This document shows, piece by piece, positions 2,311 through 38,983 of a DNA stretch of 64,000 nt. Numbering within the stretch: position 1 is the first letter of the stretch; each line of letters opens with the position of its first letter. Made by a program: the position numbers and the translations under genes. Below the pieces are notes generated by a model. The model did no database searches. It was not told where the DNA came from and was given only the letters and a program-made list of their open reading frames with translations. The DNA is from Chloroflexota bacterium (GTDB lineage: Bacteria > Chloroflexota > Dehalococcoidia > JACPQK01): contig JACPQM010000043.1 of NCBI GenBank assembly GCA_016190505.1, positions 9,188-73,187 of the forward strand, given 5' to 3'.

Positions 2311-4551
2311 ATGCAGGTTGACCCCATAAAGTACGAGATGTTCCTCCACCGCCTGTGGGCCATAGGCGAGGAGGGACGGATGACCATCCAGCGGGTGTCC
2401 GCCTCTCCCATCGTAGCCCAGGGGGGAGAGTGCATCAGCGGCTTCTATGACCCCCAGGGCACCCAGGTGCTGTCGTGCTCGGGCCACCTGCGCTTCGCCG
2501 GCGCTACCTCCATGGCCGTCAAGAAGATTATCGAGCTCTTCTCGGAGAACCCGGGCATCCGCGACGGCGACCAGTTCTTCCAGAACGACCCCTATGTGGC
2601 CGGCGCCCACGTCTATGACCGTCTGGTGATCAAGCCGATCTTTTACCGGGGCCGCCTGCTGGCCTGGGTGGCCACCGGCATTCACACCGCCGATACCGGC
2701 GGGGTGCTCCGGGGGGCGGCCACCCAGATCCACGAGGAGGGCGTGCGCCTGGCGGGGCTCAAGGTGGTGGAGGACGGGCGGCTGCGGGAGGACACCTTCC
2801 GAGCGATTGTGGACCAGTGTCGGGACCCCGGCTACGTGGCTCTGGACCTCAATAGCTGCATCGCGGCCAACAACGTATGCGCCCGGCGGTATCTCCAGAT
2901 TGTCGAGAAGTACGGCGCCGAGTTTGTCGAGGCCGCCGGCACCAAGACTATCCAGGACTCCGAGGCCATGGCCCGGGCCAAGCTGGAGGCCATGCCCAAC
3001 GGGACCTGGGCCGCCCGCCACTACGGCGTCGCCCGGGACAAGGAGACCGGCGAGGCCATCCCCTTCCAGGTAGTGTGTACCATGACCAAACAGGGGGACG
3101 AGCTTACCCTCGACTTTACCGGCACCAGCCGGGAGATGGCGGGCACTACCATGAACTCGACCCTCCCCTGCACCGTGGCCCAGGTGTCGGTGGCCCTCAC
3201 CGCGACCCTGTTCTGGGATATCCCCTGGTGCGATGGCAAGCTGGCCCCGGTGAAGTTCATCGCCCCGGAAGGCTCCATCATCAACTGCCGCTTCCCGGCG
3301 GCCACTGGCGGCGCACCCGAGGTGGGCCAGCAGCTCCTGCCCGCCATCTGCGAGTGCGTAGCCAAGATGCTCTACGCTGCCGGGCGCTACCAGGACGTGG
3401 CAGCATCGCTCCATGCCCGGTGGTACTCCGGGGGGCCCGGCGCCTTCTACGGGGGTCACGGTCGCCAGGGGATACCGGTGCCCCAGGGGATATATGATAG
3501 CCACGGCGCGGGCTTCGGCGCCAAGCCGGACCAGGACGGGGTCAATACCGCCGGTCGCATGCACATCCCATCGGGCGGCATCGCCGACGTGGAACGCACC
3601 GAGATGCACTACCCGATCGTTTACTTCACCCGCAACCATTGCACCGACGGCGGCGGCTGCGGGAAGTTCTCCGGCGGCGCCGGCAGCTACCGCATATACA
3701 TGGTCTACGGCTCCCAGGACCTCAGTGTGGACTACAAGCCCTATGGCGGAGTGCCCGAAGGGGGCTACGGGCTGTTCGGCGGCCAGCCGTCCGGCACCGG
3801 CGGCGTCCGGGCGCTCTTCAAATGCCCCGACGTCATGAAGAAACTGCAGGCTGGAGACTACCCGACCACCACCGACGAGCTGGAGGCAAGCTGGGGCCAG
3901 GCAGTGGTGTCCAAAGGCGGCCCGACCCGCATACCCCTGCCAGAGTTCAGCCTGGTGGCTGATTTCGTGAGCGGCGGCGGGGGCTATGGCGACCCGCTGG
4001 AGCGCGACCCACACAAAGTGGTGCGCGAGCTCCGGGATGGCCTGGTGTCCGCCCACGCGGCCGCCAACTACTACGGTGTGGCCCTGCACCCTGACGGGCG
4101 GAACCCGGACGAAAGCGCGACTCAGCGGCGGCGGCAGGCGCTGCGCCAGGAACGGCTGGCCCAGGGCAAGCCGCACAGTGGCAGCACCTCGTCGGTCCCG
4201 CGGGGACGACCAACGCGCTCGCTGTTGAAGTTCCACGAGTACCTGGCCATCGCGGCAGACGGTGGTGCTCTCCTGGTCTGTTGTCGCTGCGGGCACGTCC
4301 TTTGCCAGGCCGGCGAGAACTATAAGGACTACGCGCTCCGGCGGCAGAGGGACATCGAGGAGCTTACCGGCCGCCGGCTACCCCACGGCCAACCATATCT
4401 GGCTGTCTGGCAGGAGTATATCTGTCCGGGCTGTGCCACACTTCTCCAGGTGGACGTGTGGTGTCCGTCGCTGGGAGACGGGGCGCCGCTGTGGGACACC
4501 CGCCTGGACCTGGGTAAGACTGTAAGCGCGTCGCGTGGGAAAGGGGGCTAA
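2311..4551 (+). CDS. hydantoinase B / acetone-carboxylase alpha-like (HyuB family) with C-terminal Cys-rich Zn-ribbon extension
   Basis: N-terminus MQVDPIKYEMF…IGEEG is typical of the HyuB/oxoprolinase-B family. The C-terminal CCRCGH…CPGC Zn-ribbon extension is of the acetone/acetophenone carboxylase alpha type. An alternative GTG at 2293 lies 9 nt after an AGGAG. Confidence 0.8.
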   Translation: MQVDPIKYEMFLHRLWAIGEEGRMTIQRVSASPIVAQGGECISGFYDPQGTQVLSCSGHLRFAGATSMAVKKIIELFSENPGIRDGDQFFQNDPYVAGAHVYDRLVIKPIFYRGRLLAWVATGIHTADTGGVLRGAATQIHEEGVRLAGLKVVEDGRLREDTFRAIVDQCRDPGYVALDLNSCIAANNVCARRYLQIVEKYGAEFVEAAGTKTIQDSEAMARAKLEAMPNGTWAARHYGVARDKETGEAIPFQVVCTMTKQGDELTLDFTGTSREMAGTTMNSTLPCTVAQVSVALTATLFWDIPWCDGKLAPVKFIAPEGSIINCRFPAATGGAPEVGQQLLPAICECVAKMLYAAGRYQDVAASLHARWYSGGPGAFYGGHGRQGIPVPQGIYDSHGAGFGAKPDQDGVNTAGRMHIPSGGIADVERTEMHYPIVYFTRNHCTDGGGCGKFSGGAGSYRIYMVYGSQDLSVDYKPYGGVPEGGYGLFGGQPSGTGGVRALFKCPDVMKKLQAGDYPTTTDELEASWGQAVVSKGGPTRIPLPEFSLVADFVSGGGGYGDPLERDPHKVVRELRDGLVSAHAAANYYGVALHPDGRNPDESATQRRRQALRQERLAQGKPHSGSTSSVPRGRPTRSLLKFHEYLAIAADGGALLVCCRCGHVLCQAGENYKDYALRRQRDIEELTGRRLPHGQPYLAVWQEYICPGCATLLQVDVWCPSLGDGAPLWDTRLDLGKTVSASRGKGG

Positions 4552-15892: not shown

Positions 15893-18436
15893 ATGGATGG
15901 CCAGGGCACCGTAGTCACGCCTTCCTTCTGTGTCGAGTGCTACAATCACTGCCCGGTGATTGTGCACGTTGACAACGGCACCATTGTCCGCGTGGAGGGT
16001 AACTCGCTTACTCCCTACACCCAGGGCAGGCTGTGCCCCAAAGGGCAGGCCGCCCTTATGCGCCTGTATGACCCCAACCGGCTGCGGGTCCCTATGAAGC
16101 GGACCAATCCCGACAAAGGCATCGGGGTTGACCCCCGGTGGCAGGAGATAACCTGGGAGGAGGCCCTGGAGACCATCGCGGGCAGAATGGCCCAGCTCAG
16201 GGCCACTAACCCCCGTGGGCTGAAGGTGCCCACGCGGGAGCACCCGCGCGTGGCCATGGCCCAATGCTGGGGACTCGCCTTTGGCACCCACTACGTCGGC
16301 TCCGGGGCGGGGACCGGAGGTGGCGTGCAGTGCGGCAACGCCGCTCACACCCTGGGCACCCAGATATGGGGCTCATTCCACGACTGGCCGGAGTACCGGT
16401 ACACCCGCTATGCGCTGTTCATCGGCACCAACACGGGATTCGAGTCCGACCGGGCATTGCCCATGGACGCCAAGCGCATCGCGGATGCACGCCTGCAAGG
16501 GATGAAACTGGTGGTGGTAGACCTGCGCTTTACGCACACCGCTGCCAAAGCCGACGAATGGATACCCATCCGGCCCGCCACCGATGGTGCCTTCGTGCTT
16601 GGTCTGGTCAACCTGCTGGTCAACGAGCTGGGCATCTACGATGCGCAGTTTCTCCGGCAACACACCAATGCGCCCTATTTGATTGGTCCCGACGGCCACT
16701 ACGTGGTTGATCCCGTGTCCGGCAAGCCGCTCATATGGGACGCCGTGGCAAACGGGGCCAGGCCGTTCGACGTTTTCGGCGGCGACGAGGTGAGCGGCAG
16801 GGCAGCCCTGGAGGGAGAATACGTAGTCAACGGAGTGCCCTGCCGTCCCGCCTTTCAACTGCTGAAGGACCGGGTCAGGGAGTACACTCCGGAGAAAGTG
16901 GAGCAGATCACCAGCGTGCCCGCGGCCACCGTGCGGCGGGTGGCCCGGGAGTTTGGGGAGAGCGCCCAGATCGGCGCCACCATTGAGATTGAGGGGCAGC
17001 GTTGGCCGCTCCGGGGCTCGCTGGTGGCCTACTACCGGGGCACGCAGGGCCACGTGCACTCAACCCTTACCACGCAGGCCATCTACACCCTCCAGATGAT
17101 GGTGGGGGCGATGGGGGTCCCCGGCGGCACCATGCGCTTGCCCACCGGCACGCGCATACCCTCCGCGCCACTGCGGGCGCGTCCCGATGGTACTGTGGCC
17201 TACGACCTTACCCAGCACGTGCCCTTTGCGCCACCGGTGTGGCCTCCTACGGAATACCACCTGGGCAACTACCTGCCCTTCGACGTGGTGGGGGCCTCTC
17301 ATCTCCACTACGTCACCGGGGCCGGACCGGACAAGTGGGGCCTGGACTCGAACGTCATGGTCTTCGCCGACAACTCCAATCCCGTGCTGGTAGTAGGCGA
17401 CCAGAAGGTGATGGACGCCTATCACCAGAACGCCTTTGTCGTGGTAATGGACCAGTACCTTACCGAGACCGCCGAGCTGGCCGACATAGTGCTTCCCTCC
17501 GACTTCCAGCTTGAGAGGCACAGCGTGGTGGCGGTGAAGGCCGGGGCCAGCTATCTTGGCTTCGTTTACTCCCGGCCCGCCGTCAAGCGACCGTACCAGG
17601 CCAGAGACTGGTGGGAGGTGGCCCTGGAGCTGGCGGAGCGGGTAGGCTTCCTCTACGGTGAAGGCGGCTTCAACTACTGGGTCAACGCCACTTTCCGCCT
17701 CCGGCCGGAGTACGCCCTCAGCCTGAACGAACGCCCCGACTCGTTCCAGGTCCAGGAGAGGATTGTCAAGAATATCATCGGCGAAGAAGGCTGGCAGAAG
17801 CTGGTGACTGAGGGGCTTTATGCCTACCGAGTGCCTGCCGCGGAGAAGTACCTGCCCTATCGGGGTGCCCGGCTGGCCTTCTACAACGAAGCTCTGCTGA
17901 AGACTGGCCAGGACCTGGTGCGTGGGATGAAGGAAAGTGGGGCCTACGACAAGGTGGCCACCGCGCTCGACCTTTCAGACTATGATGCCCTGCCCAAGTG
18001 GAAGCCTGGTCCGATTCACCATGAGGACCCAAAGTACGACCTCTTCGCAGTAAACGGCAAGTCCGTGCTGTTTACCTTCGGGCGTTCCGCGTTCAACGCC
18101 TGGCTTATGGAGCTGGCGGAGAGAGACCCCTATGTGCTGAAAGTGTGGGTCCACCGTGATACAGCCAGGCGGAAGGGTATCCAGGATGGGCAGGCCATCT
18201 GGGTGGAGTCGAAGACAGCGCGAGTGCGGGGCGAGGCCAAGGTGACCCAAGGCATGCACCCGGAGTGCGTTGGGATTGTGGGGTGCTTGGGACACTGGTG
18301 CGACCATCCCATTGCCGGGGGCAAAGGAGTCCACTTCAACTCCTTGATAGACCTGAGCCTCCAGAACACTGACCCTATTTGTGCCACCATGCAGGGCTCT
18401 GCGGTGCGCGTGAAGATCTACCCCGACGCGCGGTAA
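15893..18436 (+). CDS. molybdopterin (bis-MGD) oxidoreductase catalytic subunit, tandem paralog
   Basis: CVECYNHC…C(PKG) Fe-S motif. Colinear and clearly homologous to the upstream gene (GIGVDPRWQEITWEEALETIA…, LVNELGIYDAQF…). Confidence 0.85.
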   Translation: MDGQGTVVTPSFCVECYNHCPVIVHVDNGTIVRVEGNSLTPYTQGRLCPKGQAALMRLYDPNRLRVPMKRTNPDKGIGVDPRWQEITWEEALETIAGRMAQLRATNPRGLKVPTREHPRVAMAQCWGLAFGTHYVGSGAGTGGGVQCGNAAHTLGTQIWGSFHDWPEYRYTRYALFIGTNTGFESDRALPMDAKRIADARLQGMKLVVVDLRFTHTAAKADEWIPIRPATDGAFVLGLVNLLVNELGIYDAQFLRQHTNAPYLIGPDGHYVVDPVSGKPLIWDAVANGARPFDVFGGDEVSGRAALEGEYVVNGVPCRPAFQLLKDRVREYTPEKVEQITSVPAATVRRVAREFGESAQIGATIEIEGQRWPLRGSLVAYYRGTQGHVHSTLTTQAIYTLQMMVGAMGVPGGTMRLPTGTRIPSAPLRARPDGTVAYDLTQHVPFAPPVWPPTEYHLGNYLPFDVVGASHLHYVTGAGPDKWGLDSNVMVFADNSNPVLVVGDQKVMDAYHQNAFVVVMDQYLTETAELADIVLPSDFQLERHSVVAVKAGASYLGFVYSRPAVKRPYQARDWWEVALELAERVGFLYGEGGFNYWVNATFRLRPEYALSLNERPDSFQVQERIVKNIIGEEGWQKLVTEGLYAYRVPAAEKYLPYRGARLAFYNEALLKTGQDLVRGMKESGAYDKVATALDLSDYDALPKWKPGPIHHEDPKYDLFAVNGKSVLFTFGRSAFNAWLMELAERDPYVLKVWVHRDTARRKGIQDGQAIWVESKTARVRGEAKVTQGMHPECVGIVGCLGHWCDHPIAGGKGVHFNSLIDLSLQNTDPICATMQGSAVRVKIYPDAR

Positions 18437-20816: not shown

Positions 20817-23624
20817 CTACTCACCTGCCTCAAACTCCAACCCCAGTTGTCTGGCGGCCTCGCGCATGGTCTTGAGCGTCTGGTCATTCTCGTCAAGCGA
20901 CTGGTCGGCGCCGGTTTCCATCTCGAACTGGATCCCCAGGCTGAGCTTCTTGAGGTGCATACGCGCCGCCGGCCCCACAAACGCCCTGAAGATGTCCGCC
21001 CAACTCTCCTGGGGCACAGACCCTCGGATAACCAGGCGCCGGACAACGGGTTTGGTGGGCGTTGGCGGTGTTACCGGTCCTTCGACGGGCCCCGGCTGAA
21101 CACCGCCGCCACCCGTAGGTTCGCCCACGCGTGGCTGAGGGGCACCGGTGAGTGGTGGCGTCAGTGGCGCAATCTCGAATGGCGGAATCACCCAAACGCC
21201 ATCCTCGTTGGGGTCAACAAATACGGACTGCCGGCAATACTTCGCTTGAAGGTTCGAGACGGTCACGCCTCGACCGATGCCAACGAGTCCATCTTTACAT
21301 GCTTGGGCCAGGCCAGTGCTCACCGCTTCCTTTGATGCGATCATGGGCTTATCTGAGAAGCGCAGGAAGGCATCCACTGCGTCTCTGACACGGATGGCCC
21401 CCGTTTCGGGCACGAGGCCGGTATCCTTGAGGGTTACTGATCCCACGCGGGGCAGAATCCATTCCTCGTCTTCCACCAGGGTCTTCCACAGATAACCCAG
21501 GTGTTCGGGGAAGGAAGTTCGAGCATCGCTTAGCACCACAGGTTCAACCTCTTGCTTGGCAATCCTGAGTGCGATTGTGTAGGCTGGGCCGAGGGCTTCG
21601 AGCGCTGATTTGTCGGCCGCCTCGATGCGCTTCTTGAGATCGTCTTTCTGCTCGCCGTCAAGCTGGCTGCCGTAGTCGGACTGGATTGCCCTGAGGGCAG
21701 CCCGCTCGCTGTACGCCTGCCGGAGTTTGCTCAACCCTCGCGACGTGGTGGCCAGAAAGAGCAAGGTGTTTCGGTAGAGCCGGTCCTTCGCGCCGCATTT
21801 GGTGCTCAGCTCCATCACGCGGTTCTTGACTAGCACCTTGCCTGCTTCATCCTCTCCCCAGGCAAGCGACGGCGGAAGCAGTAGGAGGCAGAGGCTTCTT
21901 TGCTCAGGCAATTCGGGGTCCGGGTTAACAAGTATCCTCCAGGTGGGGCCACTGGCCCAACCTTTCTGGGATTGGGTGTTGAGCGCATCGAGTATCTCTT
22001 GATCGAAGTTCTTGCCGGCGAATTGTTGGCGGTACTGGACCAGGAGCTTGTTCAGTGTCGGCTTGGTCCCGAACCAGTACCGTTTACCCAGGCTGCCGGC
22101 CAAGGCCGTATACAGGAAGAACCCGCGGTCTTCAAGCTCCAGAAGCGCGCCGTCGTGGTAGTTCCAGTTGAGTCCGGGCCTGGAACATGCCAGCTTCAAG
22201 TCCCTGGCGGTGAAGCCCGACTTGGCCCCCTGGCCACCGAAAGAGCCGAGCAGCATCGCGGCGGCCAATCCCTCGGCGATGCGCTCCCGGCGATAGTCCC
22301 CGCCGCGCTCCTCGTCCAGGGCGGCCGCCGTCGATTTCTCGCCCAGGACATCGGCGGCCACCACCGTCTGGTAAGCCGGCCCCCACAACCGGGTCAGCGC
22401 CGCCTGCATAGCGTCCACCGACCAACGAATATGGCATGGTTGAATCAACGGTTGCGATTCGGTGTAGGTATCCCGATGTTTCCAGAGATCGCCGACAACG
22501 CTGGCCAATAGCCTCAGCACGCCGCGAGTCCTCTGGAAGTCCGGGTGGCTGCCCCAGCGCATGTAGAGAGCATCGATCAGCGCCGGGTGAAACGGATAGC
22601 AGCGCTCGATCTGGTCCCGGTAAGTGGTCTTCGCTGCCTCAGCGGGGACCTCGCCGGAATGGGCAGCGTAGGTGGCCTGGTACTCGGTCGCAACCTTGCG
22701 AGGGTAGTCCTTGTCTCCGTTCGAGACGGACTCAAAAAGGCGGCTTCGCACCACGGCGTAGATTTCATCGTCAGCTACCGGCCTCACATCCGCGCCCAAC
22801 CGCTGGAACCGCTTCTCCAGTGTGATGAACGCCTCTTGCCCCTTCTCACTCTGGGCAACCTCGAACTTGCTGGCCGGGAGAGTGGCAACGACGACCGCTC
22901 CGGGGACCTGTTGCACCGCTTCCGTGAGTTGCTGAATGAACGAGATCGTTTGATCGGCAAGGGTGGTGTCTCCGACCGGGACGGCGGCAGCGCCGACGCA
23001 GTAGTCGGCCAGCTCGTCCAGCAAGATAAGACACGGCGACGCCGTTCGCAGGACCTCCACGAACAGACCATGTGGAACGCGCTGCGTCTCATCGTTGGCG
23101 CGGACCTTCTCGTAAAGAGCCTTGCCGCCCAGTTGGAGAGCTAGCTCGCCCCACAGGGTGTGGGTATGCACTCCTTCCGGCGTCTTCCGGCCTTGAGTGG
23201 CGTCACAGCTAGCATTGGTGAACACGGCCACGCCGCGCACCTTGTCCGGGAAGTGGTTGTCCAGGACCCGGCGCAAGTCTTCGGAAGCCGGCGACCCCTT
23301 GAGAAGTCCAGCGTGCTTCGCCAGATGGTAGAGCGCCACCAGCGTATGAGTCTTGCCGCCGCCGAAAGCGGTTTGAAGGCTGATGATGCGGTCGCCCGCC
23401 TCTCCGCCCTGAAGGGCCACCGAGACACGCTTCAGAACGGTGGCAAGCCCAACGGTCATGTAGGTCTTGCGGAAGAACTCCTCCGGGTTGAGGTAGACTT
23501 CGGGCGCCGTACCCTGGACGACAGCCCAGATGTTCGCCGCGAAGACCGCTTCCTCAAGCCTGCCGGCGCGGATGTCCTCGTGCGGGATGGCCACGGCGTA
23601 CCAGGGTTTCAAGGTTTCGGCCAT
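20817..23624 (-). CDS. DUF499-type AAA+ ATPase (BrxC/PglY-like N-terminal region)
   Basis: N-terminus …LKPWYAVAIPHEDIRAGRLEEAVFAANIW… Walker A (GGGKTHT) and Walker B (CLILLDELADY). GGAGGGG SD 5 nt before the ATG. 22-nt gap after the methyltransferase gene. Confidence 0.8.
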   Translation of the reverse strand: MAETLKPWYAVAIPHEDIRAGRLEEAVFAANIWAVVQGTAPEVYLNPEEFFRKTYMTVGLATVLKRVSVALQGGEAGDRIISLQTAFGGGKTHTLVALYHLAKHAGLLKGSPASEDLRRVLDNHFPDKVRGVAVFTNASCDATQGRKTPEGVHTHTLWGELALQLGGKALYEKVRANDETQRVPHGLFVEVLRTASPCLILLDELADYCVGAAAVPVGDTTLADQTISFIQQLTEAVQQVPGAVVVATLPASKFEVAQSEKGQEAFITLEKRFQRLGADVRPVADDEIYAVVRSRLFESVSNGDKDYPRKVATEYQATYAAHSGEVPAEAAKTTYRDQIERCYPFHPALIDALYMRWGSHPDFQRTRGVLRLLASVVGDLWKHRDTYTESQPLIQPCHIRWSVDAMQAALTRLWGPAYQTVVAADVLGEKSTAAALDEERGGDYRRERIAEGLAAAMLLGSFGGQGAKSGFTARDLKLACSRPGLNWNYHDGALLELEDRGFFLYTALAGSLGKRYWFGTKPTLNKLLVQYRQQFAGKNFDQEILDALNTQSQKGWASGPTWRILVNPDPELPEQRSLCLLLLPPSLAWGEDEAGKVLVKNRVMELSTKCGAKDRLYRNTLLFLATTSRGLSKLRQAYSERAALRAIQSDYGSQLDGEQKDDLKKRIEAADKSALEALGPAYTIALRIAKQEVEPVVLSDARTSFPEHLGYLWKTLVEDEEWILPRVGSVTLKDTGLVPETGAIRVRDAVDAFLRFSDKPMIASKEAVSTGLAQACKDGLVGIGRGVTVSNLQAKYCRQSVFVDPNEDGVWVIPPFEIAPLTPPLTGAPQPRVGEPTGGGGVQPGPVEGPVTPPTPTKPVVRRLVIRGSVPQESWADIFRAFVGPAARMHLKKLSLGIQFEMETGADQSLDENDQTLKTMREAARQLGLEFEAGE

Positions 23625-23646: not shown

Positions 23647-26616
23647 TCAGAACAGCCGGCCATCGGTCCGATTCCGCATGGCTTCAACCCGCAGAGTCTG
23701 ACGCTCGCCCAGGATGGCATTGACCAGTTTCCAGTCCTCGATGTCATGCGGCAGCACTTCAAAAAGCGCCTGGGCTAGCTTCCAGAACGGGCCATCCTCC
23801 AGGAGATCGCGCTCTGCGAGATACTTGACCAGTTCCGGCCTGTTCTCTTGTTTCCATAGCAATATGGAACGATGGAGGGAATCTATAAGTGGCGGATTCG
23901 GGTCAATCCCGAGGCCCCGGCGCTCCGCGCGGTCTTTGAGGAGCGCCAGGCGGCACGTGGACCCGTCCACCACGAATATGCCGTGTCCCCTGGCCACCTC
24001 CATCGCGCTCTCGGCGTCGCCGCCGATCTGGACTACCAGCCGGGCATCGTCCCAGGCCTGCTCGCCGACTCCGTAAAGGTTGGCCCACACGAAATAGAGG
24101 CGCGAGAGATTGTCGCCTTCAAACTGACCCGCGATGGCTTTCAGAGCAGACTCGCGCACAAGCGCCAGCAACTCTGGAACGCCGACGGCAGTCCCATCGG
24201 CGCGCTCCACGCGCTCGTAGCGACCAAAGACGCCGACGGCCGGACCATAGCAGGCCACGATCAAATCCACGCCGCGCAACCCGTACCCAAAGAAGCGATG
24301 CACGCTCTTTGCGACTACATCATCGAGCTCTCGACGCACGTCACGGAACGATGCCGCCGCACCCACTTCACGTGGGCGGCAGACAACGGTGATAGAAGAA
24401 GCCAGTGCAGAACCAGCGAGCGCAACAGCCCGGTTACCGCGTTCAGTATCAATGGGGAAGCTTGCCGTTATGTTCAAACCAGCCTCGAAGAGAGCTTTGA
24501 TGAGCGCTGTCCAAGCTTCAGTAGATTGGTGAGCGAACATAACCGCCAGCACGCCGTTAGACTTGCACAACCGCTTCGCTTCGGCAAAGCAAGCGGCCAA
24601 CTTTGAAGTGCAATGAACCCTTGCTCGTTCGGCATCACCGCCGTGCCGATGCTTGAGAGCCGTTGCTTCATCGTTCTTCGGGGTGAGGGGCGTCGAGAAA
24701 ACCTCAGGGAGTTGGTCGCCCAGTCCACGCTTGAGCCACACGTAGAAAAAGTCGGAAAGATCGGCATAGGCAATGGCATCGAAGTAAGGCGGATCAGTGA
24801 CAACGGCATCTGTTTGGCCTTTCGGGAACGACAATCGCCCGCTGTCGCCGTTGAAAACACAACACTCTGGAGATGAGACACCAGGAGGCAACGACTCGTG
24901 TATGAGCACACGCAGTATCCAGTCGAGTTGGCTTAATCCGCCGCCCGTTGCCTCGTTGAATGGATTGACCTCTGCATAGTCCCATATTATTGGGATGGAT
25001 TGTTTAGTGAAAACATGACCGAAGAACTCGCCGCCAGGAGTCCATGTGGCGAAACTCGCCAAGTAGTCAGCGGACTTGCTCGCCCACAAACCCAAGTACG
25101 CTGAAATCGCTTTCCGATATTCAGAGTCTTTCTCGCGCTCTTCTAAGTTGGTGAGGAAACAATGTAAACACGCCATAAGGGTTTGCATGGTCAGCAGTTG
25201 GCGAGGGTTGAACAGGGATCCCCACGTCTTCAGTCCGTAGAGGTGAACGCGGATGCCCGTAGAGTTGGAAATGCCCTCACCGTCACTCCCGGTGATTTCG
25301 GGCAGAATGAGTTCCTTTGGCCGCTGGATCGATTCCGCCATTCTCCTGGCTTTCTCAAACGCTTCCAGGTCGGTAGCCTCTACCGGGCGGTAGTCCTTTC
25401 CCTGTGGGGTATCTGTTATGACCGCAACCATCCGTTCGCCCATCTTTCCTTCCAGACCCGCACGGCGTAAATCATCAACTGGCGTCGTCTGCTGGCAAAT
25501 TGGACAACGCACGCTGCCGCGTCCCTTCTCTATCATCGTGCCAGCAGTTTCCTTGATGTCGAGGTTCTTCGCAATCCCGAAGACCACTTCTTTGCCATTC
25601 CGCTCCATCGTCAGCGCCACGCGCTTTTTGTCCTTGTTGCACACAAGGAGACTGCGCAGCAACGGAATCTCGGCGCGGCAGGTCGGGTTGGAGCAAGGCG
25701 CAGTACGTGCCCACAAATAGCCCACCACCGGCTTGCCATCCTTCCCCGGCGGATACAGATGCCCAATTCTCTCTTTGGCTTTCGCCAGAATCCACTTCGC
25801 CCAATAGTCCACGTCATGGGCAAGCACGTTGGCAACGTCAACCTCGCGCTCGACCTTCCTGCCAAACTCCTCGACCGTTGTCTTTCGGATGCCGGGCTTG
25901 CCGTACTTCTGAGGGAACTCGCAGGTGGCCCGCAGAATGAGGTAGGCCACCGGGTTGTAGTCGTTTGCTATGGCCTGGCAGCCCAAGCGTCCGGCTTCCA
26001 GAGGGATCGCGCCGCCGCCGGCGAACGGGTCGAGCACCACCGGTGTTTTGCCGCCATTCGCAATATGCACAAGTTCGCGCGCTATGCGAAGAATCTCTCG
26101 CCCCTGTTTGTTCTCAGGGTTGCTGGTCTCCCACTTGACCAGGCAGCGGTCGTCCAGAACCTCGTTCGGCGGCGGCTCTTTCACCTCGCCGTTCTGCGCC
26201 ACCGCCTGCCCCGAATCGAAGGCGATTTGTTGCGGCGACCATTTGGCGATGAAGGTGAGCAGGCGATTACGGGGCGTATCGAGGATGTTCTTATAAGGAC
26301 GGTACGGGTCAGCGTCGTTGCGCGGTTTGTTGTTTTGCAGGTACGACTTCAGAATGGTCGGTATGCTGTCTTTCAGCAGGCGATTGACCGCGTCGCGGAA
26401 TTCGGCGGGACAGCGGGGGTCATCCGGGTCCGGCACCAGCGAGGCGAAGACCACAGCGCGGGACGCTGCCAGGGGTCGCCGCGCCCACCACAGGTGCAGC
26501 GTGGAGATGTGCCCGTGCCGCAACGACTTGTCTCTCACGCTTTCGACAGAAATCTCTCGAATGGGGAGAGCCACCTCGATGAGGCGCGGACAGAAGTCGT
26601 TGGTTTTGTCGCTCAT
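23647..26616 (-). CDS. DUF1156-type N6-adenine DNA methyltransferase (Zn-ribbon-containing)
   Basis: Signature HISTLHLWWARRPLAASRAV. Motif I is DPFAGGGAIPLEAG and motif IV is TDPPY. The ATG overlaps the helicase stop by 1 nt (TAATG). Confidence 0.85.
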   Translation of the reverse strand: MSDKTNDFCPRLIEVALPIREISVESVRDKSLRHGHISTLHLWWARRPLAASRAVVFASLVPDPDDPRCPAEFRDAVNRLLKDSIPTILKSYLQNNKPRNDADPYRPYKNILDTPRNRLLTFIAKWSPQQIAFDSGQAVAQNGEVKEPPPNEVLDDRCLVKWETSNPENKQGREILRIARELVHIANGGKTPVVLDPFAGGGAIPLEAGRLGCQAIANDYNPVAYLILRATCEFPQKYGKPGIRKTTVEEFGRKVEREVDVANVLAHDVDYWAKWILAKAKERIGHLYPPGKDGKPVVGYLWARTAPCSNPTCRAEIPLLRSLLVCNKDKKRVALTMERNGKEVVFGIAKNLDIKETAGTMIEKGRGSVRCPICQQTTPVDDLRRAGLEGKMGERMVAVITDTPQGKDYRPVEATDLEAFEKARRMAESIQRPKELILPEITGSDGEGISNSTGIRVHLYGLKTWGSLFNPRQLLTMQTLMACLHCFLTNLEEREKDSEYRKAISAYLGLWASKSADYLASFATWTPGGEFFGHVFTKQSIPIIWDYAEVNPFNEATGGGLSQLDWILRVLIHESLPPGVSSPECCVFNGDSGRLSFPKGQTDAVVTDPPYFDAIAYADLSDFFYVWLKRGLGDQLPEVFSTPLTPKNDEATALKHRHGGDAERARVHCTSKLAACFAEAKRLCKSNGVLAVMFAHQSTEAWTALIKALFEAGLNITASFPIDTERGNRAVALAGSALASSITVVCRPREVGAAASFRDVRRELDDVVAKSVHRFFGYGLRGVDLIVACYGPAVGVFGRYERVERADGTAVGVPELLALVRESALKAIAGQFEGDNLSRLYFVWANLYGVGEQAWDDARLVVQIGGDAESAMEVARGHGIFVVDGSTCRLALLKDRAERRGLGIDPNPPLIDSLHRSILLWKQENRPELVKYLAERDLLEDGPFWKLAQALFEVLPHDIEDWKLVNAILGERQTLRVEAMRNRTDGRLF

Positions 26617-29600
26617 TAGTCCTCTTTACTACCGTCAAGCTGAAGCTCGGTCCCCTGGCTCGCCCAGTCGGATTCGTCTACCAAGAACTGCACGTTGCGG
26701 TAGAGCATCTCCGGGTTGAGGTTAGGGATGGGGTCCTGGATCATCCGAAGTCTTGGCCGCTCATCCTTGCAGAGGGTCACGATATAGAGCCAGCCGCGCG
26801 ACTCCAGTTGTTCCAGCTTGTCCTTCTCCGGCCCGGTCAACACAATGGCGCCCGACTGTGCCCGCCCTTTGACCTCAATGAAGCGCTTTTCCCCCGCAGG
26901 CCCTTCGGACCGGATGTCGTAATGCTCGCCATCCTTGTGTACGTCAACCGGCTTCCATCCCCTCCCGCGCTCGTAGCGCATGACGCAATCCATCGCTATC
27001 TGCTCGACTTCATCGTCGCGGCGCATGGGGAACCCGCGTGATGGACCGGGACCCTCGCCCTCCACAATGGCCTCTTGAGCGGGGATGGTTACGGCCTGGG
27101 TGATGATGTCGGGGAGATTGGCCGTGAGATTCAACATCAAGTCCAGTTCCTTCATCCGCTCGACTTTGCGCGTCTTGAGGTCAACGATGCGTTTCTGAAG
27201 CCGTTCCCGTTCCTCGGCGTTGATTTCACCAAACAGGCTGGCGTGTTGTAGCTCATTGAGGTGGCCCTGAAGTTCAAGGATCAAGTCAGTGAACGCTGTG
27301 TTGAGATACTCACGCCGGACATTGCATTCTTCTTGTCTGGCCGCACTCGTTTGGCCGAGTTGCTTCTCCGTGACCGTCTCGTAGGCCCAGGCTTGCACCT
27401 CCTCGGCAGAGTGGGCCTGGGCGCCAGGCGTATCAGGTTGTTGAATCGGAGGAATGCAGTTAAGGAGATAGGAGGGGGAAGTTATTCGCAGCCCCATGTG
27501 GTCCGCCGCCACAACTGCCAGGCGTTCGTGAGCCAGGCGAGTGCGCGATTCATTCCGGCCATCCTGAATCGTTGAACGCACGAGCCAGACGTGCTGGGGC
27601 GTCGCGATGTTTGGATCGACCAGCACAGCGCCCCTGGCGAATGCGTGGCGCGCCTCCCGAATCGCCCATCCTATGACGGTATCGAAAAGAACGTGCCCTG
27701 GCCCCAGGAGCTTTGTGCGGTCGGGAACGCGGACCTTGCTGGCCACGCTCACCAGTTGCTTGTCAAAGACAAAGGGGGTGTCATAGTGGTCGGAAATCGG
27801 CGTCCTTCGCTCCTTTGCCAGGTCTAATAGAGCAACCGGCGTCCGGCCAAGGTTCCACACCGGGAAATGCTGGTCTTGTTGGATAGTTCCCCCACAGGCC
27901 ACCCAGGCTTTCTCAAAGAAACGTTGGACAAAGAGGGGTTGCAGCTTTCGTTCGTCCGAGGCATCTCGTAGCTCGCGAGCCGCCCGAAGGTTGAGATGTG
28001 ATGCCAGGGAAGTCTTCTTCTGAAGCGCTACGAGTTTCTCCGCTTTCTCTTGGCTGGCCAGGATCAGCGCCTCTGTGGTCTCTTCCTCTGCCCCCGTTGC
28101 ATCCTCAGAATCAATAGCCCTTTCCATCAGACTGACCAGGGGCACGCCTTCCAGCCAGTCGTCGATGACATCATAGACCCGGTCTGAACCCATCTGGTCC
28201 CGCATGACATCCAACTTCGAGAGTACGTGTCGCAGAACGGAGCCTTCTCTGGTGTTCTGCGCGACCAGGTTGTAGACCCACACATCATCATTCTGGCCGT
28301 AGCGGTGGACACGCCCCATGCGCTGCTCCAGGCGGTTTGGATTCCAGGGTATGTCCCAATTGATCAGGAAGCGGCAGAACTGAAGGTTGATACCCTCGCC
28401 CGCGGCGTCGGTGGCCACCATGATCTTGGCTCGGGTCCTGAACTCACGCTGGGCGCGCTTGCGCTCGTCCACATCCATGCTCCCATGTATGGCAGCGACG
28501 GAGTAGCCCATATCTTCCAGCCGCTTGGCCAGGTTGTCGAGCGTGTCTTTGTGTTCGGTGAAGATGAGCAGCTTTTCGTCCTCGGTCCGGATCACTTCGG
28601 AGGTGTCGAGAACCTTGAGCAACTCTGTGAACTTGGCTTCCTTGTGATGCTTCAGAGTGGCCGCCAAGTTGAAGAGCCGGTCTACTTCATCGCGCTCCTC
28701 TTCGACCTTGGCCGGGTCGTCCGTCAACACTTGCCCGAAGATGCGCTTATCGATCCGGTCTCGCTCCTCTTCAGTCATGTCTTCGTATTCAGAGATGTCG
28801 CGAGGGTCTGTGGGATCGGTGTCGCCGCCGAGCAGCCTCTTCTTCTCGGCGGCGGTCTTGCGAGGGTCGCGCAGGACGACCAAGACCTCAGTTAATGCCT
28901 TCAGGCGGTTCTCCAGCGTCCGAGTTATGGCATAGATGCTGCTGGCGAGACGGCGCTGCATGACCATGAGGGTCAATTCGACATTTCGGTTCTTCTTGGC
29001 TTTCGCTTCCTTACGCTTCGAGCGGACGTATCTGGTAACCTCGTCATAGAGAATCTTCTCTTCGGGCGTCAACTCGTAGCCGAGAGTCTTGGTGTGCCGG
29101 TCTTTGAAGAGTGGCTGGTTGTCCCAATCAACCATCTCTTCTTTCAGGCGGCGTAGAAAGAAGCGATTCCTGGCCGCACTGATCGGCTTCTCGCCTTCAA
29201 AATCTTCCCCGCCGGCTTCGAACGCGGCAACTTGTTCGCGGACCCGTTTCGAGACGTGCTCATCCTTCTGGAAGAGGTCTTCATCGAGGAGCAGTAGCAG
29301 CCGCCGGAAGGTGTCTTTGCGGCCCCGGTGCGGTGTAGCTGTGAGGAATATGAGGTGGTCGGTCTTGTCAGCTAGGGCCTTGATGGCCTTATACCGTTCG
29401 CTTTCTTCGATCTTGGTTCCGTACTCATAAGCCGAGAGCTTGTGAGCCTCGTCCACGACAACCAGGTCCCACTGTGTCTCTTGCGCAGCCTTGAGGCACC
29501 CTTCGTTCCGTGCCAGGAAGTCAATGGAGATAACGAATATGCCATCCTCGTAGCGTGAGAACTGCCCGGGCTCAGCCTCAAAAGAAGGCCGGTTTACCAG

Positions 29601-30140
29601 GCGGGCATGGATACCGAATTTCTCTAGAAGCTCCTCTTCTTGCCATTGTTTAGTAAGTCCGCCGGGAGTAACGATCAACACCTTGTTAATGACGCCACGG
29701 AAAAGCAGTTCCTTCAGCAGCAGTCCTGTCATGATAGTCTTGCCCGCGCCGGTGTCGTCTGCCAGTAGAAACCTGATGCGTGGAAGTGGAAGGAGATAGT
29801 GATAGACGGCTTCCACCTGGTGGGGGAGGGGGTCTACGACGCTGGAGTTTACAGCGAAGAGGGGGTCGAACTGGTGAGCAATACGGATGCGCTCGGCCTC
29901 AGTGCCCAGCAAGAACTTCTCTGCGTCCCCGTCGTAGGTGAGTTCGGCACCGCGAATCCTCACCAGTCGGGCGAGTTCCTCATCAGACAGCGGGCGCTTC
30001 ACGACGCGCCTGGACTGGACTCCGACACCTTCAATCAGTGTCTTGCTGCCGAACGGAGCCACCCTCTGGACCTCGACCAGTTCCGAAGGCTCGAGTCCAG
30101 AAACAATATCGCCAGGAGACAAAGCGGTTGTTTCTGCCAT
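26616..30140 (-). CDS. SNF2-family helicase fused to a C-terminal PD-(D/E)xK-like nuclease domain
   Basis: Motif I is LADDTGAGKT, motif II is VVVDEAHK, motif III is TATPHRG, and motif VI is QRMGRVHRYGQ. The C-terminal ~150 aa carry D…(IEV)K (…HYDIRSEG…KRFIEVKGR…). Confidence 0.85.
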   Translation of the reverse strand: MAETTALSPGDIVSGLEPSELVEVQRVAPFGSKTLIEGVGVQSRRVVKRPLSDEELARLVRIRGAELTYDGDAEKFLLGTEAERIRIAHQFDPLFAVNSSVVDPLPHQVEAVYHYLLPLPRIRFLLADDTGAGKTIMTGLLLKELLFRGVINKVLIVTPGGLTKQWQEEELLEKFGIHARLVNRPSFEAEPGQFSRYEDGIFVISIDFLARNEGCLKAAQETQWDLVVVDEAHKLSAYEYGTKIEESERYKAIKALADKTDHLIFLTATPHRGRKDTFRRLLLLLDEDLFQKDEHVSKRVREQVAAFEAGGEDFEGEKPISAARNRFFLRRLKEEMVDWDNQPLFKDRHTKTLGYELTPEEKILYDEVTRYVRSKRKEAKAKKNRNVELTLMVMQRRLASSIYAITRTLENRLKALTEVLVVLRDPRKTAAEKKRLLGGDTDPTDPRDISEYEDMTEEERDRIDKRIFGQVLTDDPAKVEEERDEVDRLFNLAATLKHHKEAKFTELLKVLDTSEVIRTEDEKLLIFTEHKDTLDNLAKRLEDMGYSVAAIHGSMDVDERKRAQREFRTRAKIMVATDAAGEGINLQFCRFLINWDIPWNPNRLEQRMGRVHRYGQNDDVWVYNLVAQNTREGSVLRHVLSKLDVMRDQMGSDRVYDVIDDWLEGVPLVSLMERAIDSEDATGAEEETTEALILASQEKAEKLVALQKKTSLASHLNLRAARELRDASDERKLQPLFVQRFFEKAWVACGGTIQQDQHFPVWNLGRTPVALLDLAKERRTPISDHYDTPFVFDKQLVSVASKVRVPDRTKLLGPGHVLFDTVIGWAIREARHAFARGAVLVDPNIATPQHVWLVRSTIQDGRNESRTRLAHERLAVVAADHMGLRITSPSYLLNCIPPIQQPDTPGAQAHSAEEVQAWAYETVTEKQLGQTSAARQEECNVRREYLNTAFTDLILELQGHLNELQHASLFGEINAEERERLQKRIVDLKTRKVERMKELDLMLNLTANLPDIITQAVTIPAQEAIVEGEGPGPSRGFPMRRDDEVEQIAMDCVMRYERGRGWKPVDVHKDGEHYDIRSEGPAGEKRFIEVKGRAQSGAIVLTGPEKDKLEQLESRGWLYIVTLCKDERPRLRMIQDPIPNLNPEMLYRNVQFLVDESDWASQGTELQLDGSKED

Positions 30141-35234: not shown

Positions 35235-37313
35235 ATGGAAATAGCAGTGGATGTGGGTGGAACGTTTACCGACCTCATATGTGTCCACGATGGACAGCTT
35301 GCGGTCACGAAAGTGCCTTCTACCCCAAGGGACCAGAGCGTGGGCGTAATGACTGGCGTGGAACGCCTGCTTCGTTCCGTGAGCCGGGGTCCCCGTGACA
35401 TCACCAGGTTTGTGCACGGCACAACCGTTGCCATCAACACCATCCTCGAGCGGAACGGGGCCAGTGTCGGTGTGCTCATGACGAAGGGCTTTGAAGACAC
35501 GCTCACCATTGGCCGGCAGACCCGGAGCGACCTCTACGACCTGTTCCTGGACGCCGAAACTCCAGAGTTCCTGGCCCCGCGCAGGCAAAGGACCGGGATT
35601 GACGAAAGGATTGACTTCCAGGGGAAGGTACTGGTTTCCCTGGACGAGGAAGGGGTGGCCCAGGCTGCTCGGAGACTCAAAGAGACCTACCACGTGGAGA
35701 GCATCGCGGTCTGCTACCTGTTTTCTTTCCTCAACCCGAGCCATGAGCTGAGGACCCGGGAAATCATCAACCGGCAGTTTCCCGACCTGCGAGTGGTCCT
35801 TTCCTGCGAGGTTGATCCCATATTTCGGGAATACGAGAGACTGTTGCTCACCCTCTTCGAGGCCTACATAGGGCCCCGGGTGGACCGGTATCTCAGCCGG
35901 TTGGAGCAGCAGATGGCCGCGGCCGGTATTGAGGCGGACTTGCAGATCATCCAGTCCAGGGGCGGGATCACCTCGGCCGCGTTGGCCCGAGAGAGGCCGG
36001 TGAATATCATCATGTCTGGTCCTGCTGCTGGGGTGGTGGCGGCGATTTCCGTGGGGCAAAGCCTTGGCGACTCCGGACGCCTGGGAGCCAGCACTCGCAA
36101 CCTGATAAGCCTGGATATCGGGGGCACCAGCACAGACGTTGGCCTGGTCTATGAGGGCAGGCCCCTGGTGACCAACGAGGCGAAGCTGGACCAGTACCCG
36201 GTGCGGCGAACGATGATTGACGTGAGCTCGATAGGGGCTGGCGGTGGAAGCATTGCCTGGATATCGGCTGCGGGAGGGTTGCGGGTGGGTCCCCAGAGCG
36301 CGGGATCTGACCCCGGCCCCGCATGCTACGGCCTTGGAGGACAACGTCCCGCCCTCACGGATGCTTCTGTGGTGTTGGGTTTCCTGGACCCGGACTACTT
36401 CGCCGGCGGGCTGGTGAAGCTAGATGGCGACGCGGCCCACCGGGCCGTTGAGAAGATCGCTTCCCCTCTGGGCATGGATATCCTCAACGCGGCACTGGGC
36501 ATCCACCGTGTGGTAAATGCCAACATAGCCGATCAGATCCGTGTGGCTACCATAAAGCGGGGCTACGACACCAGGGACTTCTGCCTGGTGGCCGGCGGCG
36601 GCGCCGGACCGGTCCATGGGGGCGTCCTGGCCGGGGAGCTGTCAATACCCTGGTGCGTTGTGCCAGCCATGCCAGGGGCCTTCTCGGCGGCAGGTCTTCT
36701 CGTTGCCCCGGTGGAGCACGAAAACTCCCGGACCTTCGTTTGCCGGCTCCAGGACGGGGACGCTGTGGCATCTCAGATTGCGTCCGTCTTCGAAGGGCTG
36801 ACAAAGCAGGGCGATCTACAGATGGAGCGGGACCGAATCTCTCGCAGCCGGGTCAAAGTCACCAGGTCCTGCGACATGCGGTATGCCGGGCAGTCCTACG
36901 AGTTGGAGGTGCCGCTGGGGGGCGAAATCAGCCTTCAGAGCTTGACGAAGGCGGTGGACGACTTCCATGCCCGCCATGACCTGGTCTACGGGCACCGGAA
37001 AACGGGCGTGGACGTGGAGTTCGTCAATTTCAGGACGGTGCACTCCTGCTACTTCCCACCCCTGGCTTCCTCCAACCCTCACCGCGGGCGAAGCCTGGGC
37101 GAAGCCCGAAAGGGCACCAGGCGCGTCTACTTCGGCGAATTCGTGGATGTGCCTGTCTATGAGAGGTCATGGCTCCCCTCCAGTGAGGAGACGATTACTG
37201 GGCCAGCCATCATTGAGCAAGCGGACTCCACTACTGTTCTCTACCCCGGCCAACGGTGCATTGTCCATCCCTCGGGCAACCTGCTGGTGGGTGGACTGTG
37301 CCAAAAGGAGTAA
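35235..37313 (+). CDS. hyuA: hydantoinase A / N-methylhydantoinase A (HyuA family)
   Basis: N-terminus MEIAVDVGGTFTDLI (hydantoinase/oxoprolinase N-terminal ATPase domain). Confidence 0.9.
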   Translation: MEIAVDVGGTFTDLICVHDGQLAVTKVPSTPRDQSVGVMTGVERLLRSVSRGPRDITRFVHGTTVAINTILERNGASVGVLMTKGFEDTLTIGRQTRSDLYDLFLDAETPEFLAPRRQRTGIDERIDFQGKVLVSLDEEGVAQAARRLKETYHVESIAVCYLFSFLNPSHELRTREIINRQFPDLRVVLSCEVDPIFREYERLLLTLFEAYIGPRVDRYLSRLEQQMAAAGIEADLQIIQSRGGITSAALARERPVNIIMSGPAAGVVAAISVGQSLGDSGRLGASTRNLISLDIGGTSTDVGLVYEGRPLVTNEAKLDQYPVRRTMIDVSSIGAGGGSIAWISAAGGLRVGPQSAGSDPGPACYGLGGQRPALTDASVVLGFLDPDYFAGGLVKLDGDAAHRAVEKIASPLGMDILNAALGIHRVVNANIADQIRVATIKRGYDTRDFCLVAGGGAGPVHGGVLAGELSIPWCVVPAMPGAFSAAGLLVAPVEHENSRTFVCRLQDGDAVASQIASVFEGLTKQGDLQMERDRISRSRVKVTRSCDMRYAGQSYELEVPLGGEISLQSLTKAVDDFHARHDLVYGHRKTGVDVEFVNFRTVHSCYFPPLASSNPHRGRSLGEARKGTRRVYFGEFVDVPVYERSWLPSSEETITGPAIIEQADSTTVLYPGQRCIVHPSGNLLVGGLCQKE

Positions 37314-37315
37314 GC

Positions 37316-38983
37316 ATGTCCATAGATCCCGTGACTCTAGAGATACTGCGGAACAAGTTCGACATGGTCTGCCAGGAGATGCAGACCGTTCTGGTGAGGA
37401 GTGCCCAGTCCACGATAATCAAAGAGGCCCTCGATGCTCTGAATGCCCTCTTCGATACTCAGGGACAGGTCATCTCCCAGTCCATCTCGATTCCATGCCA
37501 CCTGGGAATGGTCATCCCTGCCGTGCAGCGGATCCTCGCCGAGTTCCCTCCGGACCAGATGCACGATGGAGACATCTACACCATGAATGACCCCCACGAT
37601 GGGGGCACCCATATTCCGGACGTCTTCGTGGTCATCCCTGTGATATATGGTGGGAGGGCAATAGGGGTTGCCGTGTGCATTGCCCATCAGGTGGATATGG
37701 GAGGGAAGACCTATGGCAGCAAGGCCATGGATGCCACGGAGATATTCCAGGAGGGACTGATTATCCCGCCAATCAAACTGTATGACCAGGGCAAACGGAA
37801 CGACACCCTGTTCAAGATACTGGAACGGAACAGCAGGATACCTCAGATGGTGCTCAACGACATCCAGGCCCAGATCGCCGGCTGCACCATAGGGAAAAGG
37901 AGACTCGTTGACCTGTGTGAGAGGTACGGGGTGGAGACTGTCCTTCAAGCCAAGGACGATCTCATGGCACACTCCGAGCTCATGACCCGCCAGGTGATCG
38001 AGAAGATGCCCGGTGGCACCTATAGTGCAGTGGGCTATGTTGACTCCGATGGCGTAGAGCTGGACAAGCCTGTGAAGATCCAGTTGGCGGTGACCATCCG
38101 TGGGTCCGAAATGATTGTGGACTTTGCCGGCACCAGTCCGCAAACGAAAGGCCCCATCAACTCCACCTACGGGTCCACGGTGTCCGCGGTGTACTACACG
38201 CTCCGCTCGGTCACAGATCCCACTATCCCCAACAACGCCGGCTGCTTCCGCCCGATAGCGATCCGGACCTCAAAGGGGACCGTGGTGGACCCTGTGCCTC
38301 CATCTCCTGTCAACGCGCGGATGCCCACAGTGTGCATGGTGGGCGACGTCATGCTGGAGGCTATGGCTCAGGCGATCCCGCACAAGGTGGCGGCCGTTTC
38401 GTCCAGCACCTGCGGCCCGGGCTTTGGCGGTGTGGACCCCCTGACAGGGAAGCGCTTCATGTTCATGGACTTCGTGGCGGGAGGGGTAGGCGCTCGCCCA
38501 ATGAAGGATGGCATAGACTCGCGCGATTCGGGCGCCGGGAACTGCCATACCCTGTCTGCCGAAGTGATTGAGATGAACTACCCCATCCGCGTCAATCAGT
38601 TCGGCCTCTGGGAGGACTCCTGTGGTGCTGGGAGATACCAGGGGGGACTGGGCACTATCAAGGCCTACGAGGTCACGCGGGGCGAGCTTACTCTTATCCA
38701 CCAGACCGAGCGTCAGTTCCAGGGGCCTCCCGGTCTTCTGGACGGGGAGCCCGGCTCAAAGCAGGAAACTATCATCACCAGGCGGAGCGGGCAAATCGAG
38801 GCTGTTCCTTCCGTCGCGGTAAGGTCACTGCGGGAGGGAGACCGCCTTGTGGTCAAGGCTCCGGGTGGTGGGGGGGCCGGCAATCCCCGAGACCGAGACC
38901 GTCAGGCGGTCCTGGAAGACATTGCAGACGGTAGGGTTTCCGCGGCATTCGCCAGGGACAAATACGGCACCGCTTCAGGGTGA
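37316..38983 (+). CDS. hyuB: hydantoinase B (HyuB family)
   Basis: AAAAGGAG SD before ATG 37316, 2 nt after the hyuA stop. MSIDPVTLEILRNKF… is the typical HyuB N-terminus. Confidence 0.9.
   Translation: MSIDPVTLEILRNKFDMVCQEMQTVLVRSAQSTIIKEALDALNALFDTQGQVISQSISIPCHLGMVIPAVQRILAEFPPDQMHDGDIYTMNDPHDGGTHIPDVFVVIPVIYGGRAIGVAVCIAHQVDMGGKTYGSKAMDATEIFQEGLIIPPIKLYDQGKRNDTLFKILERNSRIPQMVLNDIQAQIAGCTIGKRRLVDLCERYGVETVLQAKDDLMAHSELMTRQVIEKMPGGTYSAVGYVDSDGVELDKPVKIQLAVTIRGSEMIVDFAGTSPQTKGPINSTYGSTVSAVYYTLRSVTDPTIPNNAGCFRPIAIRTSKGTVVDPVPPSPVNARMPTVCMVGDVMLEAMAQAIPHKVAAVSSSTCGPGFGGVDPLTGKRFMFMDFVAGGVGARPMKDGIDSRDSGAGNCHTLSAEVIEMNYPIRVNQFGLWEDSCGAGRYQGGLGTIKAYEVTRGELTLIHQTERQFQGPPGLLDGEPGSKQETIITRRSGQIEAVPSVAVRSLREGDRLVVKAPGGGGAGNPRDRDRQAVLEDIADGRVSAAFARDKYGTASG

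Follow-up and report, generated by a model that had tools for sequence, protein, structure and literature searches.

We describe here a three-gene operon on the minus strand of a 64,000-nt stretch of DNA from a Chloroflexota bacterium (assembly GCA_016190505.1, contig JACPQM010000043.1, positions 9,188 to 73,187 of the forward strand); this whole stretch is referred to as the window, and all coordinates are counted within it. In the list of open reading frames (ORFs) the genes run in the order hmaA-hmaB-hmaC, with hmaA first, and our subject is the C-terminal tail of HmaA. This tail very probably forms a catalytically competent NOV_C/DUF3883 PD-(D/E)xK domain (amino acids, aa, 1043-1167), tethered by a linker to the RapA-like SNF2 motor of the same protein. 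The three genes are as follows.

26616..30140, minus strand: hmaA, 1174 aa, SNF2-family helicase-nuclease (ORF list, translation, Pfam, PADLOC, AlphaFold2)
23647..26616, minus strand: hmaB, 989 aa, DUF1156 N6-adenine DNA methyltransferase (Pfam, PADLOC, motifs)
20817..23624, minus strand: hmaC, 935 aa, DUF499 AAA+ ATPase (Pfam, PADLOC, motifs)

The stop codon of hmaA and the ATG of hmaB share 1 nt (TAATG in the junction sequence), and 22 nt lie between the hmaB stop and the start of hmaC, ahead of which stands a GGAGGGG ribosome-binding site. As adjoining, co-oriented genes, the three match the PADLOC models for HmaA, HmaB and HmaC, with E-values of 1.4e-190, 4.1e-137 and 5.8e-133, respectively. 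Pfam assigns SNF2-rel_dom, Helicase_C, ResIII and NOV_C to HmaA, the N6-adenine methylase families DUF1156, UPF0020 and MethyltransfD12 to HmaB, and DUF499 to HmaC. Catalytic motifs are intact in all three proteins: Walker A (GAGKT, aa 131), DEAH (aa 230) and motif VI (QRMGRVHRYGQ, aa 606) in HmaA; motif I (DPFAGGG, aa 196) and motif IV (DPPY, aa 608) in HmaB; and a GGGKT P-loop near aa 90 together with LILLDE (aa 199) in HmaC.

An earlier reading of this DNA, referred to below as the original prediction, had held that the operon lacks a nuclease gene of its own, and this is what we find. The operon consists of hmaA, hmaB and hmaC only, with no fourth gene, no nuclease gene besides the tail of HmaA and no auxiliary nucleases; Pfam and PADLOC return no nuclease family in HmaB or HmaC, just the methylase and DUF499 matches, and the genes on either side are metabolic. 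Because HmaC lacks any N-terminal extension (its PADLOC alignment begins at residue 4), it carries no HEPN RNase. The operon is thus best annotated as an intact minimal Hma, or Type-1 BREX-related, defence system, with the NOV_C tail of the helicase as its sole nuclease; its anti-phage role would carry over from a homologue, discussed below.

Sequence, fold and conservation of the HmaA tail

The translation of hmaA (26616-30140, minus strand) ends ...KDGEHYDIRSEGPAGEKRFIEVKGRAQSGAIVLTGPEKDKLEQLESRGWLYIVTL..., and the peptide quoted in the original prediction is present in it letter for letter. The interval 26616-27100 (minus strand), proposed there as the nuclease, is the 3' end of hmaA and codes for aa 1014-1174 plus the stop codon. 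The location of the nuclease in this tail stands, although its span needs trimming: the folded domain, aa 1043-1167, is slightly narrower than the interval, and the linker of aa 1021-1042 lies outside it. The proposed D(YDI)...E-V-K motif can be identified as D1075 (in HYDI) and E1089-V-K1091 (in IEVK). The features of the tail are listed here.

26640..27014, minus strand: NOV_C/DUF3883 PD-(D/E)xK domain, aa 1043-1167 (Pfam, AlphaFold2, Foldseek)
27015..27080, minus strand: linker, predicted to be flexible, aa 1021-1042 (low model confidence in the full-length and tail models)
26970..26972, minus strand: codon of E1057 (MRYER), conserved Glu of helix alpha1 (conservation, model)
26916..26918, minus strand: codon of D1075 (HYDI), predicted metal-binding Asp at the start of beta2 (conservation, model)
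26868..26876, minus strand: codons of E1089-V1090-K1091 (IEVK), the ExK motif on beta3 (conservation, model)
26826..26828, minus strand: codon of E1105 (GPEK), additional conserved Glu at the start of helix alpha2 (conservation, model)

The D...ExK motif by itself is weak evidence and is not significant. A loose form of the pattern, D-x(8-25)-[DE]-x-K, occurs 13 times in HmaA, and a strict form with hydrophobic flanks arises in 12% of shuffled HmaA sequences; because the motif alone is not significant in such shuffles, we do not rely upon it.

Family membership, in contrast to the motif, is clear. Pfam places NOV_C (PF13020) at aa 1045-1132 with an E-value of 4.8e-16 and 59.0 bits against a cutoff of 22.1, and the tail on its own scores 62.7 bits and covers profile positions 1-89 of 91. 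NOV_C was the only family found when the tail was scanned against Pfam at E≤10, with no second family of the PDDEXK clan, and neither PHROGs nor NCBIfam holds a model that matches it. DUF3883/NOV_C was placed in the PD-(D/E)XK superfamily by Steczkiewicz et al. in 2012 (PMC3424549).

The original prediction had proposed a restriction-endonuclease-like fold, to be abandoned should a structure prediction lack the PD-(D/E)xK core. An AlphaFold2 (AF2) model of aa 1010-1174, built from a 36-sequence alignment, contains that core. Its mean predicted local distance difference test (pLDDT) score is 80.9, with core blocks at 85-97 and the first 28 residues of the tail below 50. The elements follow one another as H-E-E-E-(E)-H-E-E (helix 1043-1059, strands 1063-1066, 1076-1079 and 1085-1092, a short extra strand 1099-1102, helix 1103-1115 and strand 1116-1122), which amounts to an alpha-beta-beta-beta-alpha-beta core. 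A full-length model of HmaA (pLDDT 79.8) has identical tail elements at aa 1043-1167, and the linker ahead of them is of low confidence, with aa 1028-1036 below 50. In the models D1075 sits immediately ahead of strand 1076-1079, E1089 and K1091 lie on strand 1085-1092, E1057 is on helix 1043-1059, and E1105 opens helix 1103-1115.

When the tail model was compared with the PDB using Foldseek, the top matches were all PD-(D/E)xK nucleases, with probabilities near 1. They include SPARDA (9vx6, E 1.3e-3) and the resolvase Hjc (2wcz, E 2.2e-3, TMt 0.63), followed by RecU (2fco), EcoRV, PvuII, I-Ssp6803I and VRR_NUC. Among viral models in BFVD, the matches include NOV_C, PD(D/E)XK and resolvase proteins, with E-values down to 8e-6.

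Conservation singles out the same residues that the models place on elements of the core. Across 73 tails (the window copy and 72 orthologues from many phyla, with 37-73% tail identity) E1057, E1089, K1091 and E1105 are kept in 73/73, and D1075 in 72/73, with one Glu in its place. All five are invariant among 16 full-length cluster representatives of 31-75% identity, and D1075 is also invariant in a further alignment, A1. A conserved Glu on the alpha1 helix is common among PD-(D/E)xK enzymes. The restriction-endonuclease-like fold is thereby backed by family assignment, structure prediction, fold search and residue conservation alike. A small peculiarity of the window copy is the G1116 codon (26793-26795), which gives Gly (..ESRGWLY) where 71/73 tails have Ala (..ERAWLY); the residue opens the strand that follows helix alpha2, and the substitution is probably neutral.

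Probable effector role and competing explanations

The experiments that bear upon function were made with HmaA of Halomonas meridiana SCSIO 43005 by Liu et al. (2024, PMC11232893). There, HmaA alone, without HmaB or HmaC, protects E. coli from T4 and is non-toxic. Protection against T4 is lost in the motif VI mutant R610A, weakened by E1104A and abolished by D1084A/E1104A/K1106A/E1121A. The purified 142-aa tail, supplied with Mn2+, nicks supercoiled pUC19 and slowly linearises it, leaving linear lambda DNA uncut. Defence was seen against T4 and not against T5, T7 or EEP; protection failed at a multiplicity of infection (MOI) of 10, and the authors favoured an abortive-infection-like mode.

At ~1150-1180 aa, the window protein and its H. 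meridiana counterpart both combine SNF2-rel_dom, Helicase_C and a C-terminal NOV_C, fall into one PADLOC family, have D...ExK...E in matching order and belong to an hmaA-hmaB-hmaC system; helicase residues T135/R610 in the window stand against T136/R610 in H. meridiana. In the H. meridiana locus Septu genes separate hmaA from hmaB; nothing interrupts the operon of the window. D1075, E1089, K1091 and E1105 would correspond to D1084, E1104, K1106 and E1121 of the H. meridiana protein, as judged from motif order and spacing and not from an alignment. The view that the tail is the effector of the system, put forward in the original prediction, gains support from the loss of T4 defence in those catalytic mutants and from Mn2+-dependent nicking by the homologous tail; its 'restriction', in the methylation-gated sense, is something we infer.

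Bringing these points together, we suggest a model in which the SNF2 motor, driven by ATP, would engage DNA and thereby position or license the nuclease to nick invading DNA, with prolonged action then leading to linearisation. N6-adenine methylation by HmaB might mark self DNA, and HmaC could serve to assemble or target the complex.

Several points weigh against this reading and have to be set beside it. The nuclease and defence data belong to the H. meridiana homologue and not to the window protein. Residues of the two were matched by motif order and spacing, and D and E are 14 residues apart here as opposed to 20 there; a 6-residue insertion is present at this very spot in some orthologues. 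The Foldseek E-values against the PDB are marginal (none ≤1e-3), with TM-scores of 0.4-0.63, and a sequence search of the PDB with the tail and its 36-sequence profile found no solved homologue, returning insignificant matches only (acireductone dioxygenase, E 0.1-0.3). Gating of restriction by methylation is a hypothesis for any Hma system, and an HmaA that is on its own both non-toxic and sufficient in E. coli is a poor fit to simple cutting of unmethylated DNA.

This last point, the lack of toxicity of HmaA alone, is the reason for which we keep as a serious rival the idea that the tail is an active but autonomous nickase. Here the SNF2 motor would license the nuclease in response to a feature of phage replication or topology, such as supercoiled or branched DNA, with an outcome resembling abortive infection or dormancy; the tail would act independently of HmaB, and HmaB and HmaC would modulate it or form a separable layer that acts on its own. 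Both the rival as a whole and its narrower statement, a structure-sensing tail independent of HmaB, we regard as possible, though doubtful. Defence by H. meridiana HmaA alone and its failure at MOI 10 suit such a nickase, as do the preference of the H. meridiana tail for supercoiled over linear DNA and the presence of the structure-specific resolvases Hjc and RecU among the structural neighbours; it is, however, harder to square with the tight coupling of hmaA to hmaC and to an intact N6-adenine methylase gene (TAATG, DPPY), and with the synteny of the trio across phyla, a pattern characteristic of modification-restriction logic. The DNA of T4 carries heavy modification, and the T4 result may not mirror the normal mode of action. 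In addition, a comparative survey published in Nucleic Acids Research in 2026 classes the system as restriction-modification-like (PMC12839542). If it is true that the nickase acts independently of HmaB, the window operon would offer a clean and minimal setting for telling the two modes apart, because it is an uninterrupted three-gene operon with no HEPN domain and no auxiliary nucleases; in either event, its compact, HEPN-less form makes it a convenient test case for whether the nuclease is gated through methylation by HmaB, through HmaC or through the ATP cycle of the helicase.

The remaining alternatives take the catalytic role away from the tail. The true DNA- or RNA-cutting effector might be elsewhere, cryptic in HmaC or HmaB or outside the operon, with the NOV_C tail as an accessory; this draws on the same survey, in which the DUF499 ATPase of many Type-1 BREX-related systems begins with an HEPN RNase or auxiliary nucleases lie nearby (PMC12839542), and on related loci, where additional genes frequently stand between hmaA and hmaB. 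At the window locus HmaC opens directly with its ATPase (P-loop near aa 90), no nuclease family is found in HmaB or HmaC, hmaA and hmaB overlap without cargo between them and the flanks are metabolic, and we hold an effector elsewhere to be highly improbable. A degenerate, non-catalytic restriction-endonuclease-fold module for DNA binding or protein contacts seems to us very improbable indeed: inactive domains of this fold are reported in the same protein family in that survey (PMC12839542), and the evidence for activity does come from a homologue, but the five residues E1057, D1075, E1089, K1091 and E1105 are retained here and in 72-73/73 orthologues, whereas the middle region of HmaA has no invariant acidic or Lys residue, and the homologous H. 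meridiana tail is an active Mn2+-dependent nickase. That D...ExK arose by chance in a C-terminal extension that is unstructured or unrelated, as the shuffle counts given above would by themselves allow, is refuted by the Pfam match, the confidently folded AF2 model, the hundreds to thousands of homologues and the invariance of the residues across the 73 tails; its probability is close to nil.

The motor, related systems and the place of the window copy

The nuclease is the last of several domains in HmaA. In the full-length AF2 model a beta-barrel (aa 12-63) is followed by the helicase (~100-650), an alpha+beta domain (~753-894), a coiled coil (912-1003) and the nuclease (1043-1167), and the best solved neighbour of the whole protein is RapA (6bog, E 9e-34, ~1100 aligned columns). 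E. coli RapA has no C-terminal nuclease and recycles RNA polymerase, as opposed to serving in phage defence. The region between motor and nuclease can be entered as one further feature.

27132..28175, minus strand: middle region of HmaA, aa 656-1003, comprising a helical domain, an alpha+beta domain and a coiled-coil hairpin (AF2 secondary structure)

Among the 16 full-length representatives, L668, L733, P735, P768 and G815 are the only invariant residues in aa 656-1003, and none between aa 660 and 1010 is acidic or Lys. An inactive restriction endonuclease (REase) domain together with an alpha+beta domain has been described for the middle region of the helicase in the 2026 survey (PMC12839542). 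The predicted antiparallel coiled-coil hairpin (aa 912-1003, 27132-27405) is very long and stands immediately before the nuclease linker; going by the model, it may serve as a lever or as an arm for dimerisation.

In its layout the full-length AF2 model corresponds to the helicase of Type-1 BREX-related systems (N-terminal Tudor-like barrel, middle alpha+beta and C-terminal active PD-(D/E)XK REase), with the beta-barrel of aa 12-63 as putative counterpart of the Tudor-like one, and the core of DUF499 ATPase, DUF1156 N6-adenine methyltransferase and Swi2/Snf2 helicase is likewise the same. These systems carry an HEPN RNase in ~56% of taxa (1370/2446; PMC12839542), in contrast to the window HmaC, which has none. 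The window SNF2 core is also related to those of DISARM DrmD and BREX BrxHII (PADLOC E-values of 3.5e-120 for DrmD and 7.8e-108 for BrxH), but no DrmA/B/C or BREX genes are present at the window locus. We rejected assignment to DISARM class 1 with HmaA as DrmD, given NCBIfam scores of 380 bits against a cutoff of 610 and 224 against 950, and no DrmA/B/C-like genes adjoining the operon. Also rejected was a Type-2 BREX-related system (PLD-helicase, DUF1156, DUF499 and DUF3780): phospholipD_antiphage scores 157 against 1100, DUF1156_antiphage 176 against 1000 and DUF499_antiphage 182 against 1200, the N-terminus is a beta-barrel and not HKD, and there is no fourth gene.

Type III restriction-modification Res and Type I HsdR proteins follow the same logic as Hma, in that an ATP-dependent motor is fused to a nuclease of the restriction-endonuclease fold and works beside an N6-adenine methylase. 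The window system differs from both in its RapA-like SNF2 motor, its NOV_C nuclease and its third, AAA+ (DUF499) component; it has neither an S subunit nor Mod-Res pairing, and self-protection by methylation would be presumed in its case. Archaeal Hjc and bacterial RecU share 13-18% sequence identity with the tail; these resolvases work as free-standing dimers with specificity for four-way junctions, and NOV_C is not known to have a preference for junctions.

The pairing of an SNF2 motor with a DUF3883 nuclease as effector is already published, with prediction in 2012-2013, experiment in 2024 and a family-wide survey in 2026. Anantharaman et al. (2013, PMC3710099) described the SNF2-DUF3883 fusion as a new REase, and the 2026 survey, which uses the name Type-1 BREX-related, gives an active C-terminal REase on the helicase in 1921/2446 taxa (79%; PMC12839542). 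The system had been named Hma in 2021, with 1638 instances in 26 phyla (PMC8565338). The window copy agrees with it in every feature of membership that we tested and is one more member of a known system; it differs only in being minimal, in that its HmaC lacks HEPN and its hmaA and hmaB are not separated by cargo.

Distribution and genomic context

The tail has 141 close homologues, all with PF13020, and a profile search of 1.84 billion cluster representatives gave 2649 matches at E≤1e-3; among the full-length matches listed, the domain is C-terminal in proteins of ~1100-1180 aa. A look-up of the exact HmaA sequence matched no record. A genome scan found 243 relatives, the best 80 of which have 43-81% identity (closest, 77-81%) and come from Acidobacteriota, Gemmatimonadota, Chloroflexota, Planctomycetota, Nitrospirota, Bacteroidota, Verrucomicrobiota and some archaea. 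Among these best 80 of the 243, loci with hmaA, hmaB and hmaC in that order on one strand are found repeatedly. Of the 80, 72 have the tail, 60 have hmaB and 41 have hmaC; many of the remainder break off inside hmaA or shortly beyond it.

HmaA is 75-81% identical across genomes assigned to very different phyla, and a partial match in an archaeon (Thermoplasmata, locus L041) reaches 81% over aa 17-898. This indicates recent transfer between phyla, or possibly contigs that were mis-binned. Two loci look degraded or interrupted. In L057 (10007-13567) the hmaA alignment stops at aa 827, with the last ~220 residues of hmaB ~430 bp further on; in L055 (10001-14700) the match spans 4.7 kb, with a best tblastn segment of aa 7-672 only and no tail found.

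As opposed to the 1-nt overlap in the window, relatives often have 2-8 kb of cargo on the same strand between hmaA and hmaB (L001 13533-15462, L011, L029, L008, L016, L050, L004 13514-16514, L005, L009 13515-15441 and L062). Judged by eye from motifs, this cargo includes a recurrent ~640-aa UvrD-like helicase, ~900-1000-aa PHP plus SMC-like ATPase proteins, a ~410-aa AlbA_2/Schlafen-like protein, and OLD/GajA-like ATPase, GmrSD-like and AbiE-like genes. It agrees with published accounts that speak of an 'insertion hotspot' and a 'backup effector'.

Around the operon in the window, a FAD oxidoreductase and two molybdopterin oxidoreductases lie on one side, and a cupin protein and branched-chain amino-acid transport genes on the other, with hydantoinases and a CoA-transferase further out. 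The molybdopterin oxidoreductases are tandem paralogues (13210-15765 and 15893-18436; 851 and 847 aa) and represent ordinary metabolic context. The hydantoinase/oxoprolinase-type genes form two separate sets (2191-4551 and 35235-38983), one with an acetone-carboxylase gamma-like domain, and are unrelated to the tail. Within the operon the G+C content is 0.57-0.60 (24-30 kb bins), compared with 0.63-0.65 in the surrounding metabolic genes, which suggests horizontal acquisition. The window ORFs scanned with Pfam include no integrase or transposase, the whole window has no tRNA genes or Rfam matches, and promoter and terminator counts between 20000 and 31000 are not above shuffled expectation.

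Finally, the nuclease fold of the tail occurs also in free-standing phage genes, because the BFVD matches include stand-alone proteins of ~140-160 aa with a NOV_C-like fold from uncultured tailed phages (for example A0A6J5RA54 and A0A6J5KR00; Foldseek E-values of 8e-6 to 1e-5).

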